Source: a virus (taxonomy: Duplodnaviria > Caudoviricetes). From it: DNA of 45,249 nucleotides. Shown here piece by piece: positions 357 to 44,862 of this stretch. The notes below the pieces were generated by a model. It saw only the letters and a list, made by a program, of their open reading frames with translations. It did not search any database and was not told the origin of the DNA. A program made the position numbers and the translations under genes. The stretch lies in IMG/VR virus record IMGVR_UViG_3300022936_000003, positions 1 to 45,249 of that record; one strand, written 5' to 3'. Within the stretch, counting starts at the first letter, position 1. Each line of letters begins with the position of its first letter.

Positions 357-395
357 GGGTTCAGCCCCTAGAACCGGAAAAGCCCGGCTGGACGA

Positions 396-4580: not shown

Positions 4581-4726
4581 TTCCCCACCTCCCAAGACCA
4601 CTTTTTCAGCGCGAGGCGGTCGGCGTTCCGATCCGGCGCCGGCACGGTGATGTTCTGGCCCTTTGCGTTAACGCGGGCTCCCATTTTCAGGGGTCGTTCG
4701 GTCATGGTTTCAGCCTTCTTGGTCAT
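4577..4726 (-). CDS. small hypothetical protein (alternative start 4705)
   Basis: MTKKAETMTERPLKMGARVNAKGQNITVPAPDRNADRLALKKWSWEVGK; fills the gap and its stop overlaps the next ATG; below the ORF-track cutoff. Confidence 0.55.
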   Translation of the reverse strand: MTKKAETMTERPLKMGARVNAKGQNITVPAPDRNADRLALKKWSWEVGK

Positions 4727-4729
4727 GGG

Positions 4730-4930
4730 TTAGTCGAAACTGGCGATGTCGGGCGGGGGCGCGACCTGGGCGGCGTCCTCGTGGGACTTAGCCCAGCCGT
4801 GCACGATCTCCGACATGGCGCCCCGGCCCTTGCCCTTGTGGGCGTCAACGATGCGCTCAAGTGCGGATCCCTTCTTGGGACGCACGGTCAGCGGCGGGAT
4901 GGCGTTCGGGTCAACGGGGCGTTTGGTCAT
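4730..4930 (-). CDS. putative ribbon-helix-helix-like DNA-binding protein
   Basis: beta-strand LTVRP followed by two helices (SALERIVDAH / AMSEIVHGWAK); start lies 6 nt from an operator pair. Confidence 0.5.
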   Translation of the reverse strand: MTKRPVDPNAIPPLTVRPKKGSALERIVDAHKGKGRGAMSEIVHGWAKSHEDAAQVAPPPDIASFD

Positions 4931-9056: not shown

Positions 9057-9564
9057 GGTCAGCCCCTATCAGCCGCCGGTCCCACTCGGGCCAGAGGTCA
9101 GGTGAATGGTGACGGATGCCGCACAGGAAAGCCCCACAGGCGTCCGACTCGTCTTTGTTCTTAGGCTTCATGCCGGCGCGGCGAACCGCAGCCATTACGG
9201 CGCCCTTCTCGGCCTTGCCCGACCCGGCCACGCGCAGCTTGATCGTGACAGGGTAGACCTTCGTGATCGGGATGCGCTTCTCGACGCACTCCATTTCGAG
9301 GACGCCGGGCAAAGCGTGCAGCTTGGTCGTGACCTCGGGTGTCTGATTCGGCATCGACACCGGGGCCTCATAGACGACCCAAGCGGGCCGGAAACGGGCC
9401 AGCAGCAGCCGATAATAGTCCCGCGCCTCTAGCAGATACCGGCCCACGTCCTGCCCAGTAGCCGACAGCCTGAAGCTATCGACCACCGGGAGGCGTGTTC
9501 CGTCGCCAGCGCACCACCCGACTTGTGTCGCGAGGTCGAACCCGATGCCGACAGGACGGGTCAC
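9049..9564 (-). CDS. RuvC-like Holliday junction resolvase
   Basis: GIGFDLAT...VVYEAP...IKLRVAGSGKAEK...DESDACG; GTG start at 9564. Confidence 0.85.
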   Translation of the reverse strand: MTRPVGIGFDLATQVGWCAGDGTRLPVVDSFRLSATGQDVGRYLLEARDYYRLLLARFRPAWVVYEAPVSMPNQTPEVTTKLHALPGVLEMECVEKRIPITKVYPVTIKLRVAGSGKAEKGAVMAAVRRAGMKPKNKDESDACGAFLCGIRHHSPDLWPEWDRRLIGADLD

Positions 9565-9698: not shown

Positions 9699-9928
9699 GC
9701 GAAGGCGTCCGCATCAGACGGCGGGGCCTTGGGCTTAGGCTTGGCCCCCGCGAGGTGGCGGTCCAGTTCGCCCAGCAGCCCCGTGAACAGCGCCGCCTTG
9801 GTCCCTGTCGGGGGCGATGCCTGCCACCCGACGAGGGACTGACGAACGCGACCGTTGAGGGTTTCGCGGTCCTCCCGGTCCAGCCGGTTTTTGAACCACG
9901 TCCGAAAACCCAGGTCGGGGGAGGCCAT
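9695..9928 (-). CDS. hypothetical protein
   Basis: ORF coupled (TGATG) to the upstream gene. Confidence 0.65.
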   Translation of the reverse strand: MASPDLGFRTWFKNRLDREDRETLNGRVRQSLVGWQASPPTGTKAALFTGLLGELDRHLAGAKPKPKAPPSDADAFA

Positions 9929-10788
9929 CAGCCGAACGCCGCCGCGTCGTCGGCGCCGACTTCCTCGATGTCCGACAGACCGGCTTCGTCCGACCCGTCA
10001 TCGAGATAGTCGCCGTCTTTGAGGAACCGCTGGCGATTGCCGAACCTGACGAGGACGCGAGCGAAGTTGCCGATGCTTTCGCGCAGGGCCACGTCATCGA
10101 CCAGCGTCGCCATGCTGGCGTCTTCCAAGGCAGTGTCAGGCTCGAAATGCTCCTCAGTCAGGATGTAAGGCAGCGGGGCAGCGTCCGAGACGGGCGCAGG
10201 GGCCTTTTTCCCGGCCTTGGGGGCGGTCGCCAAGGCGCGGGCTTCCATCACCCGATCATAGCCCTTGAAGTAGGCCTGATGACGCTCGGGCGGGCATTCC
10301 TTCGGCGGGTCGCGGTCGGCCGCCATGACGCCGGCCGTATAGCCTCGGGCTTCCCAGTCCACTTCTTCCACGGCACCGGTCGGCATCCCGTCGAAGGCGT
10401 TCAGATAGTCGGCGCGGGCGAGGCCGAAGACATCGCGGATGAAGTCGCGGGCCTTTTCCTTCTCGGCCATGTCGGTGCGGCTGTTGTCGGCGTCGGCCAT
10501 CGCTTCCTTGATGAGCGAGGCGGGCAGACCGGCGGCGCCCAGCTTGCCCGTGATGGCCTTCCGGTCGGCGCGGAGGATTTTCACCTTGGACATTGCGGTG
10601 TCGATGCGCTCGTCCAGTTCCCGCAGTTCAGCGACGCCGCGCAGGAGGGTGGACCGCAGGACTTCTTCCGGCGGCGCGTTCGGGATGGGCTCGCCGGTCG
10701 CAACCGTCGTACTGTTCGGCTTCATCGCCACCACGTTGCTCTTGGGCTTCTTCGGGGCTTTCTTTTCAGCCCCCAGGGTCTCGGCCAT
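9928..10788 (-). CDS. GapR-like (DUF2312-like) DNA-binding domain plus RMF-like motif protein
   Basis: coiled-coil ELRELDERID...DRKAITGKLGAAGLPASLIKEAM, then WEARGYTAG...CPPERHQAYFKGYD; ATG 10788 with GGAG SD. Confidence 0.6.
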   Translation of the reverse strand: MAETLGAEKKAPKKPKSNVVAMKPNSTTVATGEPIPNAPPEEVLRSTLLRGVAELRELDERIDTAMSKVKILRADRKAITGKLGAAGLPASLIKEAMADADNSRTDMAEKEKARDFIRDVFGLARADYLNAFDGMPTGAVEEVDWEARGYTAGVMAADRDPPKECPPERHQAYFKGYDRVMEARALATAPKAGKKAPAPVSDAAPLPYILTEEHFEPDTALEDASMATLVDDVALRESIGNFARVLVRFGNRQRFLKDGDYLDDGSDEAGLSDIEEVGADDAAAFG

Positions 10789-10870
10789 ATGCTGGCTCCA
10801 TAGGTTCGGCTGATCTGGATTTGGCGCGGTCAGCCCGTCCGCAGAACCGTTGTGGCATACCCGAAAATAA

Positions 10871-10903: not shown

Positions 10904-10949
10904 TCACTCACCGGGAGCGGAAACCCCGGCAACGGAAAGGCTGAAGACC

Positions 10950-11442: not shown

Positions 11443-12182
11443 AGCCGCTTCTGGTCGATCTGTTTTGCGGCGAAGGCGGCGCGGCCGAGGGCTATCGCCG
11501 GGCCGGCTTCCGCGTGATCGGCGTTGACTTGGGCAACCATCGGCGCCGGTTTCAGTCGGGGGCCTTCATCCAAGCCGACGTTTTCGAAGAAGCATCAGTC
11601 GAGGCCCTGGTCCGGTTGGCCGACGCCGTTCACGCCTCGCCGCCCTGTCAGTTCGGAAGCGAGTTGACGCCCGCCGGCGCCCGCGACCGACACCTGAACC
11701 TCATCCCGCCGACGCGCTCGATGTGCGAGCGCAGCGGGAAGCCTTACATCATCGAGAACGTGCGCGCTGTCCGCGACCATCTGGTCAATCCGGTGTCGCT
11801 GTTCGGGACCATGTTCGGCAACGGCATGGTGACGGAAGGCCAGCAGGCTTTCGTTCTTTCCCGAGAACGTCTGTTCGAAACGAACTGGGGCCTCACGGCG
11901 CCGCACGATCCAGGGACACGCGGCTGGCCCATCGCCAACGTCTATGGCGGCCACCTACGCGCCCGTAGCGGCGAGTTTCGCACCGGCAAGGGAACGGGCC
12001 GCACGGTTGATTTCCCAGGCGAGGACAGGGCCGCGCTTGCCCGCCAGCTTATGGGGATGCCTTGGGCCACCATGAACGGGATGAGCGAGGCCGTTCCCCC
12101 GTCTTATGCCGAATACATCGGCCGCCAGTTGATGGCGCACCTCACGACCGCTCCTGACGCCCCCGCTGTTTACAAAGGCTGA
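11439..12182 (+). CDS. DNA cytosine-C5 methyltransferase (short phage type)
   Basis: DLFCGEGG motif I, HASPPCQ motif IV, IIENV motif VI. Confidence 0.9.
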   Translation: MKPLLVDLFCGEGGAAEGYRRAGFRVIGVDLGNHRRRFQSGAFIQADVFEEASVEALVRLADAVHASPPCQFGSELTPAGARDRHLNLIPPTRSMCERSGKPYIIENVRAVRDHLVNPVSLFGTMFGNGMVTEGQQAFVLSRERLFETNWGLTAPHDPGTRGWPIANVYGGHLRARSGEFRTGKGTGRTVDFPGEDRAALARQLMGMPWATMNGMSEAVPPSYAEYIGRQLMAHLTTAPDAPAVYKG

Positions 12183-25279: not shown

Positions 25280-27739
25280 TCACTTCCAAGCGGGAGGGCC
25301 AACGGTGTCGTTTGCCAAGCCCCGGTTTACCACCGCTTTAGTCCGACGTTCAAACGTCCGCCGATCCTCGGCCATCGCCTGCTGTAGACGAATGACCGCC
25401 GCCTGATCCGCGCCCCGTGCGTCGATGACCGGCGCATAGGTGAAGGCCTGCCCCCTGCCGGCCGATGGCGACGGCGGCTTGAGGTTGCCCACATAGCCGT
25501 TTTGCGAGGGCGTGAAAAACTCGCTGCGAGGCGTGTTCTCGTTGACGCGATACGTCATCCCGGCCTTTACGGGTCCGCCCAGCGCACGATTGCCGCCGAA
25601 GGCCGAACCCAGGAAACCGGCGATTGAGCCGCCGATGCCGCCGCCCTTTTGTCCGGCTTGCAGCAAGGTGCTGAAGATGGACGCAAGCCGATCCTGTAGG
25701 TTTTCCAGCAGCGCGTTTCGCATCGCCATCCCGATGGCTTCGCCAGGGTTTTCGGCCGTGACGATGTTCAGGAAGCCGTAAGCGAGCGCGTTGCCTTGGT
25801 CTTGGAAAATCTGCTGTTGCGCGGCGAGGCCAGCGGCGAGACCCTCCGAAATCTCCCGGCCGTAGTCTTCCCAAGGGATCAGTTCGATGGCTTCGGGCAG
25901 TTGCAAGTCCTGCGCCGCCGCCCCGCCTTCTAGGATCGCGCCTTCGGTCGGGGTGATGTATTCGCGGCGCACGGCCTCGCGGATGGTGGCGGTGCGTTCC
26001 GCCAGTTCCTTCGCGGCCCGCTCAACATCCGTCAGGAGGTCATTCTGGATGGCCTCTAGGTCGTCGCGAAGCCGGTCAACCTCGGCCGCCGCCTGACGCC
26101 CGCCGTTTGTTCCGCCGCCGCCGCTTGTCGTCGGCGTAGGCGTCACAGAGCCGCCACCACCACCGCCCAGGTTCACACCGGCCGCGATGCGCTGGATTTC
26201 CTGATCTAGCCGGATTTGCTCCCGCACCGCCGCCGCTGCCGCCGCCTGGGCGTCAGTCTGTTGCTGCATCGCCGTCGAGGCCATGCGCTGCGCCGACTGC
26301 ATAGCGACGGCGGACGAGTTGGAGAACGGCCCCTGTCCGAACGCTGCCGTCCGTTCCGCTGCTGTCGTGGCTGCCTCCGTCGCCCGTGCAGCCTTGGCCC
26401 CGGCCGCCGCAACCCGTTCGGTCGCCAAGGCCCGCGCCGCCGTCAGGGCCGCCGCCGCCTCCTCGCGCAGGGCCGCCGCGTTGTCCCGCGCCGCTTTGGC
26501 GTGCTCAGCCGTCGCGTTCTTGGCGTCAATCTGGGCCTGTTCGTATCGGCCCAGGATTTCATCATTCGCCGCAATGCGCCCGCCCATTTCGGCCTGAGCC
26601 TCGGCCGCCGTGATCGTGTTGCGCTGAAGGGTGAAGATAACCGCCGCCAGCGCCGCCACACCCACGATCAGCAGCCCGACCGGGTTGGCGGTCATCGCGG
26701 CGTTGAGAGCGATCTGGGCCGCCGTGGCGCCGGTCTGCCGGGCCTGTAGGCGGATGAGCGCGACCTGATAGGCGATGGTCGAAACGGTCGCCAAGCCGGT
26801 GCGGACCGCCGCCGCCGTCATGGCCGCCACATAACCGCCCCCGACCGTCACGGCCACGAGGCCGGCAGCGTTCGAGATGTCGTCCAGATGGTCCGCCACG
26901 AAGCCGATCACGGTGCCCAGCTTTTCAGACGCACCCGTGGAGGCGTCCAGTTGCCCCACGAACTGCGTCGCCTTCGTCTGTAGGTTCGTGAAGGCGTCGG
27001 AAATGGTGGCGTTCGTCTTGGCGAAGCCCGCGTCGATGCCCACGGTCGCGTTCTCAATCGCGCGGAACACGCCGGCCGAGGTCAACTTCCCTTCGGCGCC
27101 CAACTCCTTCAGCTTGCCGATGGTCGTGTCAAACTCGTCCGCGATGGCCTGCGCCAGCACCTGCGAGTTTTCACGGATGGCCTTCAGCTCGTCGCCCGCG
27201 AGGTTGCCCGACCCGAGGCCCTGAGCAAGCTGCGTCACGGCCGAGGCCCGCTCGCCGGCCGTGAGGTTGGATGTCGCCAGCGCCTTGTTGACGGTCTCGA
27301 CCACCCGCGCGACTTGCTGCTGCGACACGCCCAGTTCGCCCGAGGCCGCTATCAGGCGGTTGTAGAGGGTCACGGTCCCCTCAAGGCTGGACCGCGACCG
27401 GAGCGAAATCTGGACAAGGTTTTCCAGTTCGGCGTTGACCGTCGCCTGATCCTTGCCCGCCGCTCGGAGCGGGTTGCCCATGCGGGTCCAGGCGTCGGCG
27501 TATTGCTGGACCTCGCGGGCCGCCGCCGCCAGCGCCAGACCCCCGATGGCGTTCCTGATGTTGGACGACATGGCGTTAACGGAGCCCGTCGTCCGCTTGT
27601 TCATCTGTTCAAACGACTTCTCAATCGCCGCCGTTCGCCGTTCGGCAATGCGCTGGCCCTGACGCATCCCCCGATCCAGTTTCGCCACGTCCGCCGACAG
27701 TTCCAGCACAAGGCGGGCAACGTCTTTTTCCTGGGCCAT
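25280..27739 (-). CDS. tape measure protein
   Basis: 819 aa, Ala-rich; QYADAWT...QLAQGLGSGNLAGDEL tape-measure domain; RALGGPV...VNE C-terminal motif. Confidence 0.93.
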   Translation of the reverse strand: MAQEKDVARLVLELSADVAKLDRGMRQGQRIAERRTAAIEKSFEQMNKRTTGSVNAMSSNIRNAIGGLALAAAAREVQQYADAWTRMGNPLRAAGKDQATVNAELENLVQISLRSRSSLEGTVTLYNRLIAASGELGVSQQQVARVVETVNKALATSNLTAGERASAVTQLAQGLGSGNLAGDELKAIRENSQVLAQAIADEFDTTIGKLKELGAEGKLTSAGVFRAIENATVGIDAGFAKTNATISDAFTNLQTKATQFVGQLDASTGASEKLGTVIGFVADHLDDISNAAGLVAVTVGGGYVAAMTAAAVRTGLATVSTIAYQVALIRLQARQTGATAAQIALNAAMTANPVGLLIVGVAALAAVIFTLQRNTITAAEAQAEMGGRIAANDEILGRYEQAQIDAKNATAEHAKAARDNAAALREEAAAALTAARALATERVAAAGAKAARATEAATTAAERTAAFGQGPFSNSSAVAMQSAQRMASTAMQQQTDAQAAAAAAVREQIRLDQEIQRIAAGVNLGGGGGGSVTPTPTTSGGGGTNGGRQAAAEVDRLRDDLEAIQNDLLTDVERAAKELAERTATIREAVRREYITPTEGAILEGGAAAQDLQLPEAIELIPWEDYGREISEGLAAGLAAQQQIFQDQGNALAYGFLNIVTAENPGEAIGMAMRNALLENLQDRLASIFSTLLQAGQKGGGIGGSIAGFLGSAFGGNRALGGPVKAGMTYRVNENTPRSEFFTPSQNGYVGNLKPPSPSAGRGQAFTYAPVIDARGADQAAVIRLQQAMAEDRRTFERRTKAVVNRGLANDTVGPPAWK

Positions 27740-29920: not shown

Positions 29921-29930
29921 ATGTATACAT
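29921..29930. promoter_or_regulatory. single operator box ATGTATACAT
   Basis: perfect palindrome in the gap between head-closure and gp10-like genes. Confidence 0.65.
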
Positions 29931-32499: not shown

Positions 32500-32756
32500 C
32501 AGGCTTCGAACCTCTCGGCGCGGCTATATGCAGCCGACTCGCTCAAGCCGAAGGGGAACCGCTCGCGGCTATTGTTGCCGATGTCGTATTCCAGACGGAC
32601 GCCAAAAGGGCCGAAACCGAAGACCATGTGACCGCCGGTGAAGTCGTCTTCGCGCTGCATCCCCAGATGCCAATCCAGCGGGGAAAACCAAAGCGACAGG
32701 CTTCCGCCTCTCAGGTTGCGCCAATGCCAGCGCGGAAGGTCGGGGGTATTCATCAT
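32499..32756 (-). CDS. small hypothetical protein
   Basis: GAGG SD, preceded by an operator pair; TGATG-coupled to the GT gene. Confidence 0.65.
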   Translation of the reverse strand: MMNTPDLPRWHWRNLRGGSLSLWFSPLDWHLGMQREDDFTGGHMVFGFGPFGVRLEYDIGNNSRERFPFGLSESAAYSRAERFEA

Positions 32757-32782
32757 CAGCCCTCATTTATCAGTGAAGGCCG

Positions 32783-32815
32783 ATGTAAACATTATCCCGG
32801 CCGGAATGTAAACAT
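32783..32815. promoter_or_regulatory. operator pair ATGTAAACAT (32783-32792, 32806-32815)
   Basis: two exact boxes 23 bp apart inside the late region. Confidence 0.85.
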
Positions 32816-41358: not shown

Positions 41359-41393
41359 GGTGTTTACATAGCGAAGGCCGGGCGGAACGGCAA

Positions 41394-41495: not shown

Positions 41496-41601
41496 TCATG
41501 ACTGAAGGATTCGAACCTTCGGCTGCGCCCTTTTTCCACCGTGCGAGGTGATTGAACGTAGCTGTCGCACCAGAGGGTTTAAGCCGCTCACCCAAGCCTT
41601 G
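41496..41601 (-). ncRNA. tRNA-like RNA with class II D and T arms but aberrant enlarged anticodon region
   Basis: CAAGGCT/AGTCATG acceptor, U8-G9, D arm GGT-GAGCGGCTTAA-ACC, T arm GAAGG-TTCGAAT-CCTTC; 55 nt between D and T arms. Confidence 0.7.
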
Positions 41602-41648: not shown

Positions 41649-41665
41649 CAAAGGAGGCTGACACA

Positions 41666-41821
41666 ATGAACGATCCATACGCACACTGGGCGGGCCAATC
41701 GCGCCACCCGTCACGCATAGGCCAAGGCATGGGCTGGGGCGGCAGAGGGAGGCTGTTCAGCGCCGGGGCAGTCCTGGGTTGGCTGCACGGGCTACTGACG
41801 GGCGGGAGGCGGATGCTGTGA
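41666..41821 (+). CDS. small hypothetical protein
   Basis: AAGGAGG SD, ATG 41666. Confidence 0.65.
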   Translation: MNDPYAHWAGQSRHPSRIGQGMGWGGRGRLFSAGAVLGWLHGLLTGGRRML

Positions 41822-42012
41822 CGCCCGACCACCGACTGGCCTCCAGGCGCGTGATCGTGGCCCGCAAGTATCTGGCGAAGGGGATCGCCCTGACCCACGT
41901 CGCGCGGGCTTGCGGCATCCCGGCGGCGGACCTTGATGTCTATCTCTGGCGCACCCTGGGCCTGACGAACGAACAAGTCGCGAAGGGCGGATGGCTCAAC
42001 ATCCCCGCTTGA
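41818..42012 (+). CDS. small helix-turn-helix protein
   Basis: LAKGIALTHVARACGIPAADL HTH pattern; GTGA coupling. Confidence 0.65.
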   Translation: MTPDHRLASRRVIVARKYLAKGIALTHVARACGIPAADLDVYLWRTLGLTNEQVAKGGWLNIPA

Positions 42013-42036
42013 CGATGTAAACATTGCGGGTATGTT
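42009..42036 (+). promoter_or_regulatory. sigma70-like promoter TTGACG-N16-TATGTT with operator ATGTAAACAT in the spacer
   Basis: -35 at 42009-42014, box at 42015-42024, -10 at 42031-42036. Confidence 0.7.
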
Positions 42037-42041
42037 GATCG

Positions 42042-42110
42042 GGCCTCGGCGAGAGGTCGGTTTCAGCCCCGTGAAAGCCCGCCCGAGTTTCCGCTTAGGG
42101 CGGGCTTTCT
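42042..42110 (+). ncRNA. putative trans-acting small RNA (hairpin, seed GGUUUCAGCCCC, terminator)
   Basis: 5' stem GGCCTC/GAGGTC, unpaired 42059-42072, terminator stem 42073-42109; seed complementary to many phage leaders. Confidence 0.65.
42073..42110. terminator. bidirectional intrinsic terminator
   Basis: GAAAGCCCGCCC...GGGCGGGCTTTC between convergent units. Confidence 0.8.
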
Positions 42111-42114
42111 ACGT

Positions 42115-43101
42115 CTAGGCGTTCACCTTAACGACATCGCACTCGATGATGTAGCTGGACCCGATAGCCAGCAGCGGCGCGTTCAGGCTCACGATGATCT
42201 GGCCCGCCGTGTTACAGGCGCAGTCCAGAACCGTGTAGCCAGCCGGGCGCCCAACGGTCCACGATGCCGCCCCGTTCAGTTTGTAGCGCCGCGCGAAGGC
42301 CTGATACCGCTCGCCCGCAACGGCGCCGGTCAGGGCGACCGTAACCTCGCGAATCCCGAGGGCGATGGCGACGATGGCCGTCTGTGTGACCTGAACCGTC
42401 CCGATGAGAGTGTTCGCGGGGGATCCGGCTGGCCCTTGCGCGCCCGCTGGCCCAGTTGCCCCGGCCGCGCCCGCACTTCCCGCCGGACCTGTCGGTCCTG
42501 CTGGCCCTGCTGCGCCCGTGTTGCCGATAGGGCCTTGAGGCCCGGTCGCGCCGGTTGGTCCGGTGTCTCCCGTGTTGCCCTTGGCTCCGGTAGCGCCCGC
42601 CGCCCCCGTGTCCCCCTTTGGTCCAGCAGGTCCGACCGGACCTTGTTCGCCCTGGGGACCAGCGGCGCCAGTTGCCCCGACCGGCCCCTGCCCCCCGGCT
42701 ACGCCTTGCGGGCCTTGGGAGCCCGTTTCGCCTTTTGCTCCAGTCGCTCCCGTGGCGCCCTGCGATCCGGTCGCGCCGCGCTCGCCAGCAGGACCGGCGG
42801 GACCAGCAGGCCCAACACCGCCTGTCGCCCCCGCCTCACCCTCTGATCCATCCGCTCCCGCTGGCCCTGTTGATCCGACAGGGCCAGCTTCGCCGGTCTC
42901 GCCTTGCGCTCCCGTAGCTCCGGTGTCGCCCTTCGCACCCTTAGCGCCAGCGGCCGGCGGGTTTTGCTCCAGCCACATATCGACGGCGGCCTGCACCTGC
43001 CCCGCTGGGACACCCGTCTCCTCCAGCAGCGCCAGACGTTCGTCAACGCGCTGAAGCCGCTTCTTAAGCGCCTCGCCGGACGGATTGATTCGCGGCGCCA
43101 T
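42115..43101 (-). CDS. collagen-like protein (virion fiber candidate)
   Basis: 59 uninterrupted Gly-X-Y triplets by my count, N-terminal coiled coil, C-terminal beta domain. Confidence 0.88.
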
Positions 43102-44697: not shown

Positions 44698-44862
44698 TCA
44701 GCCTTTCAGGGTGATGTTTACAGGATGGGGCCACGAGACCCAGCGGACAGAGCCGTCAGCGTCTTCGACCCGACGTTCAATCCGGACGCCTAACAGGGTG
44801 GGGCGCAGGCGATAGTCGCCTGACCACCGCCTGCCGTAAATGTCGCCCGTGCGGCGGGGCAT
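44698..44862 (-). CDS. small hypothetical protein
   Basis: MPRRTGDIYGRRWSGDYRLRPTLLG...; TGATG coupling. Confidence 0.55.
   Translation of the reverse strand: MPRRTGDIYGRRWSGDYRLRPTLLGVRIERRVEDADGSVRWVSWPHPVNITLKG

Follow-up and report, generated by a model that had tools for sequence, protein, structure and literature searches.

A likely small RNA gene in a tailed phage and a complementary tag before many of the phage's own genes

What does a tailed phage gain from a promoter and a terminator-like hairpin that enclose a 7-nt conserved motif, and why does the complement of this motif recur before the start codons of its own genes? The question arises from the window, by which we mean the whole stretch of DNA analysed, a complete phage record of 45,249 bases with terminal repeats and 65% G+C. 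A preliminary description had proposed that the unit encodes a small RNA (sRNA) with a seed antisense to the hexamer GGCTGA in the leaders of many phage genes, and that this RNA acts as a multi-target translational switch.

The phage encodes an HK97-type head, a long tail, an O-like initiator together with DnaB, RecE/RecT and two methyltransferases. PHROGs scans of 69 and 25 ORFs recovered no integrase, partition or CI-like family; nothing else indicates the carrier state that had been suggested, which is dropped here, and the phage is probably lytic. Its tail, helicase and methylase proteins find their best matches mainly in Alphaproteobacteria, the class to which, judging from these proteins, the host probably belongs. 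The only host match to a genome contig comprised 20 residues and was judged spurious. Nine family sequences were compared: the window (G000), G001 and G002, which are complete or nearly so, and the fragments G003-G007 and L006. Relatives share 67-76% identity with the window across the aligned parts, and G006 and G007 may be two pieces of a single genome. Scans for further relatives with the small terminase (metagenomes, 20 loci including the window's own record; viruses, the best 80 of 426), with a ribbon-helix-helix (RHH)-like protein and with the protein encoded at 10788 added G006 as the sole member. Many more relatives are known at the protein level, in sets of 45 and 19 related proteins, some encoded on contigs of 37-45 kb.

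The unit and its promoter comprise the following elements.

42009-42036, plus strand: sigma70-type promoter (-35 TTGACG at 42009-42014, 16-nt spacer, -10 TATGTT at 42031-42036)
42015-42024, no strand assigned: operator box ATGTAAACAT within the spacer of this promoter
42041-42110, plus strand: predicted small RNA of ~70 nt, its start placed from the -10 element
42042-42058, plus strand: 5' hairpin, differing in length and sequence among relatives
42059-42072, plus strand: linker between 5' hairpin and terminator
42063-42069, plus strand: seed TCAGCCC, the reverse complement of GGGCTGA
42073-42109, plus strand: intrinsic-terminator-like hairpin with a U tail that is short here and long in G001

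Promoter, box, hairpins, linker and terminator were all found where the preliminary description had placed them. Its account of the linker as unpaired stands with a qualification, as a 3-bp minihairpin (GGU-UUCA-GCC) is predicted within it. The cost of opening the seed is about 1.5 kcal/mol in the window and 0.1-3.4 kcal/mol over all units and assumed starts. The folding z-score is -3.8 for the 71-nt unit, with a range of -3.35 to -3.77. As judged by sequence and conservation, the unit is intergenic and devoid of a conserved ORF; a 426-aa ORF on the minus strand reaches 42024 by 5' extension, but its terminase match begins only at residue 223. The -35 element overlaps the stop codon of a 64-aa helix-turn-helix (HTH)-like gene (41818-42012, plus strand) that lies directly before the sRNA promoter and has counterparts in G001, G007 and G002. 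Its product, with a faint match to HTH_18 (E 0.03), is a second candidate regulator besides the one discussed below.

The terminator hairpin indicates the strand of the RNA. Plus-strand folds of the five known units contain 2, 2, 3, 3 and 6 G-U pairs and minus-strand folds contain none, which argues for a plus-strand RNA; the plus-strand fold is also the more stable one in all five. Between the window and G001 the hairpin shows compensatory double changes (G-C to A-U and A-U to U-A). Transcription of the convergent collagen-like gene (42115-43101) may end there as well. The hairpin does not merely belong to that gene, however, since in G007 the convergent gene has its own hairpin further on. 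A long U tail is found in G001 only, and the other four units have three to four U. No Rfam family reached its gathering score in the window, and none was found at E up to 5 with the unit in four loci. Taken together, 42041-42110 is likely a small RNA gene of the phage, a conclusion drawn from sequence comparison.

The unit is syntenic in every one of the five family records spanning the region (G000, G001, G002, G003, G007). It lies ~1.2-1.6 kb upstream of the large terminase gene and on the opposite strand in the first four, and at a matching distance from the small terminase in G007. Each of the five carries the seed; relatives with the leader motif but lacking the seed, an outcome that the preliminary description had named as telling against it, were not seen. 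As the units had first been found through the seed, which makes this count circular, a seed-blind scan was run that searched nine records for TTGAC[AG] followed by a terminator-like hairpin. It returned 12 units, with TCAGCCC in all five syntenic ones and in none of the other seven, and TCAGCCC is the only 7-mer that occupies one aligned position in five of five units. These share ancestry and are not independent observations. Between the window and G001, identity amounts to 89% in the linker, 72% in the terminator, 43% in the 5' part and 50% in the 60 nt downstream. The -35 TTGAC[AG] is present in all five units and an xAxxxT -10 element at 16-17 nt in four; the -10 of G002 is weak.

A seed-based scan (promoter, seed, hairpin) of 326 loci totalling 2.93 Mb, including repeats of the same records, recovered the five known units plus one antisense reading of a target leader, and a covariance model run over 50 sources found no new member. 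Among annotated phages the unit had no DNA match, the four weak matches obtained being to the neighbouring collagen-like gene. One pattern scan of viral contigs (54 matches) contained no such unit, and a second (81 matches) recovered G001 and G007, the rest being mostly chance.

Other elements border the unit in particular relatives. A non-coding block of ~400 nt, conserved and with many compensatory pairs, was noticed at L111:1268-1650 (plus strand; G001), L116:2415-2790 (minus strand; G002) and L325:4860-5270 (plus strand; G009); it is absent from the window, and Rfam offered no fitting family for L116 or L325. The copies in G001 and G002 run convergently towards the sRNA terminator, have a promoter of the form TTGACC-17-CATYTT and begin with GGGCTGAACC, which may be a target of the sRNA or a partner of the 3' end of the block itself. 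The G009 copy lies ahead of an ORF with an HNH-like motif recognised by eye, and there the sRNA model found no unit within 8 kb. Two tRNA genes (Thr, Ser) adjoin the sRNA unit of G003. In the window, 41496-41601 (minus strand), upstream of the terminase operon, resembles a tRNA weakly (Rfam tRNA, E = 0.1; folding z -0.65) and was not called by ARAGORN.

The sRNA promoter carries an ATGTWWACAT box, as had been described, and this box recurs in the genome far above chance. The window holds 17 matches at up to one mismatch, 11 of them exact, where 0.54 are expected. The box occupies the same position in the promoter spacer of G001 (one mismatch) and G007. Genome G002, in which 12 exact copies of TGTATGACA replace ATGTWWACAT, has its own box type directly behind the -35 (TGTAGGACA, one mismatch to the consensus TGTATGACA); the box at the promoter thus switches with the operator type of the genome. 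The promoter of G003 has neither type, which leaves four units with a box immediately after the -35. Across the family the two operator types occupy equivalent places (TGTATGACA in G002, G004 and G005; ATGTWWACAT in G000, G001, G006 and G007), and the RHH-like protein likewise comes in two sequence types; possibly there are two immunity or specificity groups. A box at 41360-41369, right before the start of the terminase small subunit, recurs in G001 and G007 and, in altered form, in G002; a simple early-only regulon leaves it unexplained. Another (1113-1122) lies directly at the start codon of the 893-1114 gene.

All GGCTGA sites of the preliminary description are present in the window. We list the leaders together with one further candidate, that of 10788.

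361-366, minus strand: GGCTGA tag, 4 nt before ATG 356, behind boxes 396, 419 and 443
4710-4715, minus strand: GGCTGA tag, 4 nt before ATG 4705; best predicted target
9059-9064, minus strand: GGCTGA tag before TTG 9056 (DNA methyltransferase)
10808-10838, minus strand: GACGGGCTGAC ... TCAGCCG pair, ~47 to 20 nt before ATG 10788; leader site at 10830-10838
10939-10944, plus strand: GGCTGA tag before ATG 10950, behind boxes 10871 and 10894
12177-12182, plus strand: GGCTGA tag before ATG 12184; its TGA also ends the upstream methylase gene
32756-32784, minus strand: GGCTGA tag before ATG 32756, with cis pairing to an upstream TCGGCC/TCAGCC arm, provided that the transcript includes this arm
41656-41661, plus strand: GGAGGCTGA tag before ATG 41666; boxes 41609 and 41639
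44698-44703, minus strand: GGCTGA tag, 4 nt before ATG 44693, behind box 44714

Is the tag more than a common hexamer of a G+C-rich genome? Across the whole window GGCTGA occurs 43 times against 30 expected (sd 5.7); this count being only slightly raised, the signal is one of position. Before ATG-opened ORFs of the window alone, the hexamer ranks 4th of 3938 (7 versus 1.7 expected, p = 0.002 uncorrected), which is not significant after correction. By contrast, when eight family sequences are pooled it ranks first of 4088 (39 versus 9.3), against ranks 487 and 327 in sets of 29 and 26 G+C-matched control loci. Individually, the tag ranks 7 in G001, 1 in G002 and 4 in G004, and 746, 481 and 244 in the fragments G003, G005 and L006. 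With starts chosen by codon score alone, GGCTGA was the top or joint-top hexamer in three complete genomes, at 5 of 61, 7 of 57 and 8 of 68 starts where 0.4-0.5 are expected.

The classes of tagged genes were compared on 63 window starts set by hand by an annotator who knew the motif. Nine are tagged, namely five of the nine box-proximal starts and four of the other 54 (p = 0.002); with respect to function, none of 26 structural starts and nine of 37 non-structural ones (p = 0.008, on the same hand-set starts). The structural genes of the window use ordinary GGAG sites. The tag itself is a purine-rich, Shine-Dalgarno-like element (AAGG, GAGG, AGGG) followed by CTGA, and in 43 family sites picked by hand from 88 rows the commonest gap to the start codon is 4 nt (21 of 43). 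Tags are always in the sense orientation and tied to start codons, and their distance to boxes varies. The family shows no enrichment of classical GGAGG words. The caveat of the preliminary description that stop-start overlaps inflate the count is real, but its effect is small: six of the 43 family sites close an upstream gene, 12184 and 9928 are such overlaps among the nine tagged starts, and in three annotated control phages the hexamer occurs at 4 of 158 starts, all four being stop-start junctions.

The tag outlives the genes that it precedes. It was retained while the gene behind it was replaced in the 41666 cassette (five of five) and in the 10950 cassette (five of five), and each complete genome has it at 6-10 starts besides the 41666 cassette. 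The tag of the 4705 type is kept in G001, G007 and G002 ahead of different genes and, as had been noted, forms 10 contiguous pairs with the seed region. That of 44693 is kept in the same three relatives. The 9056 tag recurs at the matching start of G002, and a gene of G004 at 26866, a candidate counterpart, is tagged too. The stop-start arrangement of 12184, a site that is present but whose TGA belongs to the upstream methylase gene, is also found in G001, G002 and G004. The genes at 356, 10950, 32756, 41666 and 44693 are indeed first genes after a box, with one mismatch in that of 44693. Gene 41666 heads a small operon that ends at the sRNA promoter, and its cassette is the only tagged one with a conserved promoter pair (TTTACA-17-CAATAT in G000, G001 and G007). 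Tagged and boxed cassettes were also noticed among the structural genes, at 29921 and 32783-32806 of the window; at 29921, G001 and G002 have a tagged 145-aa gene, and the window has one box and no such gene.

Two leaders contain a copy of the seed in addition to the tag. For 32756 the cis hairpin has a predicted stability of -16 to -19 kcal/mol in G000, G001 and G002, and the same arms occur in G006; if the upstream arm is transcribed, the tag is predicted to be self-paired, in which case this leader scores no pairing gain and may be self-sequestered. The 10788 leader has the pair GACGGGCTGAC and TCAGCCG ~20 nt further on in five of five orthologues, and cis pairing is the predicted fold in some of the folded segments only. 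When the upstream arm was blocked in silico, the start became ~2-3 kcal/mol easier to open in one of five orthologues (G006), changed by <1 kcal/mol in G000, G001 and G002, and became harder to open in two of three folded segments of G004. The coding site at 10764-10773 within this gene, which had been proposed as a target, is rejected as unconserved, being present in this genome only (one of five orthologues). The gene at 9928-10788 (minus strand) encodes a conserved protein with a likeness to ribosome modulation factor in its later part; PF04957 was matched by 8 of 26 homologues at E up to 0.1 (best 1e-4), and some are named after that factor. The N-terminal coiled coil of the protein may resemble GapR/DUF2312.

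How strongly do seed and tag point to each other? Scored with a purpose-written duplex-plus-opening measure, the five best predicted targets among the 63 starts are all tagged, as is expected because the tag itself defines the pairing. Covariation of seed and leader motif, a check proposed in the preliminary description, is absent from the core. Both are invariant there, so that no compensatory change supports the predicted pairing. The flanks co-vary weakly at best: leaders of the G002 type form on average 8.2 contiguous pairs with the window's seed versus 7.3 with their own, and the worst fit of G003 leaders is to their own seed. AG precedes the core in 8 of 17 leaders of the G002 type versus 3 of 21 of the G000 type (p = 0.04, the sites being related). 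The U-rich flanks pair loosely with any purine-rich spacer, and many tags have an A where the seed needs a G, which reduces the duplex to 6-7 pairs.

A candidate for the protein that binds the boxes is encoded near the 4705 cassette.

4730-4930, minus strand: 66-aa RHH-like protein, directly behind boxes 4937 and 4960

Two boxes precede this gene in the window and in G001, and a variant box in G002; its start lacks a GGCTGA tag in all three. A structural model built from 21 sequences (pLDDT 77) shows an extended segment followed by two helices. Its top eight structural matches are antitoxins with Z-scores of 3.0-3.4, below the level that the tool considers reliable, and rmsd values of 3.2-6.9 over 45-58 residues. 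One of them is titled RHH, and we take the other seven to be RHH proteins as well. Neither Pfam nor PHROGs gave a match, and Foldseek, a sequence search of solved structures and the Atlas returned nothing clear. On account of its position, the product is the probable binder of the box; its likeness to RHH proteins is weak.

Of the switch proposed at the outset, we retain, on comparative evidence, a conserved plus-strand RNA gene, a seed complementary to a tag in non-structural leaders and a shared operator; the coding target and the carrier state are not supported. We put at about 0.6 the probability that an sRNA of ~70 nt is made, pairs in trans with the leaders of tagged early and accessory genes and lowers their translation, and that an RHH-like repressor acting on the shared box limits early expression to a bounded pulse. 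The UCAGCCC seed would pair with the GGCUGA tag at the ribosome-binding site (RBS) of early and accessory genes of the phage itself, and the duplex of 6-10 bases, probably aided by a chaperone such as Hfq, would cover that site. A single protein, probably the RHH-like product of 4730-4930, would bind the boxes and repress both the tagged cassettes and the sRNA promoter. Upon phage entry, with the repressor absent, cassettes and sRNA would fire together; as the sRNA accumulates, translation of the tagged genes would be damped. The untagged repressor gene would escape the sRNA, and its product would then shut transcription, leaving a short, bounded pulse of early proteins. That the sRNA times the early-to-late transition is a guess. 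To our knowledge, early-gene shut-off in phages has been explained almost wholly by proteins.

It is tempting to speculate further, albeit tentatively and with more doubt than confidence, that the early regulon is barcoded: one hexamer in the Shine-Dalgarno region of each early cassette would be kept when genes are swapped and be read by a 7-nt seed under the same operator, so that repressor and RNA form a two-layer timer. The 32756 and 10788 leaders, with their own seed copy, would be pre-silenced or switched by the same helix, and the whole would exemplify an RNA layer in the control of early genes that is widespread among tailed phages and as yet undescribed.

Could GGCTGA be nothing but a lineage-specific RBS, with AAGG or GAGG plus CTGA pairing loosely with an extended 16S tail, and with an RNA that is real but acts on host mRNAs or matches the tag incidentally? 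The spacing of the tag is indeed as fixed as that of a Shine-Dalgarno sequence (the 4-nt gap in 21 of 43 sites), GGAGG words are not enriched, the flanks of seed and tag do not co-vary, and PreS and similar known sRNAs of phages target genes of the host (PMC12197685). We nevertheless consider this unlikely in view of the ordinary GGAG sites of the structural genes of the same genome (tag at 0 of 26), of the unremarkable pairing of tagged leaders with the anti-Shine-Dalgarno motif (-4.5 to -8.5 kcal/mol for eight of nine) and of a chance that we estimate at about 1 in 1000-2000 for an invariant 7-mer to complement the top hexamer of 4088. A free RNA would be dispensable altogether if the unit were the 3' end of the 41666 operon with a two-way terminator, its seed folding in cis onto the operon's first RBS. 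The operon runs straight into the unit in five of five records with its first gene tagged in each, the hairpin faces a convergent gene in the window and, in G001 and G002, an RNA-like block that converges on it, and the same two motifs pair in cis in the 32756 and 10788 leaders. What makes this explanation distinctly improbable is that the TTGAC -35 is kept in five of five units with a box right behind it in four, and that cis action leaves unexplained why each complete genome has the tag at 6-10 further starts.

Alternatively, GGCTGA/TCAGCC might be recognised by a protein, either as the RNA site of a translational regulator or as a DNA site, with the unit serving as a decoy or as an extra copy on the other strand, the minus strand of which reads GGGGCTGAAACC. 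Such a role would fit the motif's presence in cis hairpins and at a point 47 nt ahead of the 10788 start. Tags, however, are always sense and bound to start codons at variable distance from boxes, the hexamer is near its expected count away from starts, and promoter, U tail and wobble pairs favour a plus strand that is the complement and not a copy; this explanation appears very unlikely to us. We give still less credence to an activating RNA that opens tag-containing hairpins or acts as an adaptor for weak Shine-Dalgarno leaders. Self-pairing of the tag is conserved in two leaders, and the prophage sRNA IsrK is described as activating through leader refolding (PMC4825925). At most sites, however, the duplex would sit on the RBS itself, and blocking the arm of 10788-type leaders eased opening of the start in the G006 orthologue only.

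If repression in trans, the reading that we prefer, is true, the unit represents a compact RNA regulon in which one 70-nt RNA governs at least seven of the phage's own cassettes in a phage that lacks CI and integrase. New accessory genes would join this regulon at once because they inherit the tagged leader. It would also be a small switch, with one seed and many natural leaders, that is accessible to simple reporters.

Multi-target Hfq-dependent sRNAs of bacteria combine a variable 5' part, a short conserved seed and a terminator, and form 6-10 bp with the RBS. The unit described here differs from them in that it is phage-encoded and would be directed against the phage's own genes, and four of the five units have a short U tail. 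Nothing that we found in the openly licensed literature describes this RNA or a leader tag of fixed sequence that serves as target for an sRNA of the same phage. The following comparisons hold for the cited sources as far as their accessible text goes. Pairing of short seeds at the RBS by bacterial sRNAs mostly blocks translation (10.1101/2022.04.08.487710). VpdS of phage VP882 and PreS of lambda are likewise phage-encoded, trans-acting sRNAs with terminator ends, and VpdS is reported to affect both host and phage mRNAs (PMC12197685, 10.1101/2024.10.31.621285). They differ from our unit in being Hfq-bound, in stemming from temperate gammaproteobacterial phages and in having host targets, and the accessible text mentions no built-in tag in the leaders of their own phages (PMC12197685, 10.1101/2024.10.31.621285).

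The 77-nt c4 RNA of P1 and P7 is another short phage RNA that acts in trans on an mRNA of its own phage near the RBS, but it controls an antirepressor mRNA (PMC12197685). The CI RNA of P4, which is processed from a precursor, terminates transcription via seqA and seqC next to the gene of the RNA itself (PMC4825925). By contrast, our unit has at least seven scattered cassettes as predicted targets and matches no Rfam family; the operon adjoining it carries the tag, no antirepressor family was recognised in that operon, and most tags lie elsewhere. SviR of the Vibrio cholerae PLE satellites resembles the unit as an sRNA of a mobile element with its own promoter and terminator, one seed of which has predicted pairing sites close to the 5' UTRs of several operons of that element, variable accessory loci included (10.1101/2022.04.08.487710). 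However, SviR is ~210 nt long, has two seeds, is borne by a satellite, targets the helper phage as well and alters the processing of PLE transcripts (10.1101/2022.04.08.487710). The unit thus belongs neither to SviR nor to the c4 and P4 CI RNAs: compared by description, it is a 70-90-nt RNA with one shared 7-nt seed in a complete 45-kb phage with head and tail genes, matched by a fixed tag in the Shine-Dalgarno position and tied to its predicted targets by a shared operator.
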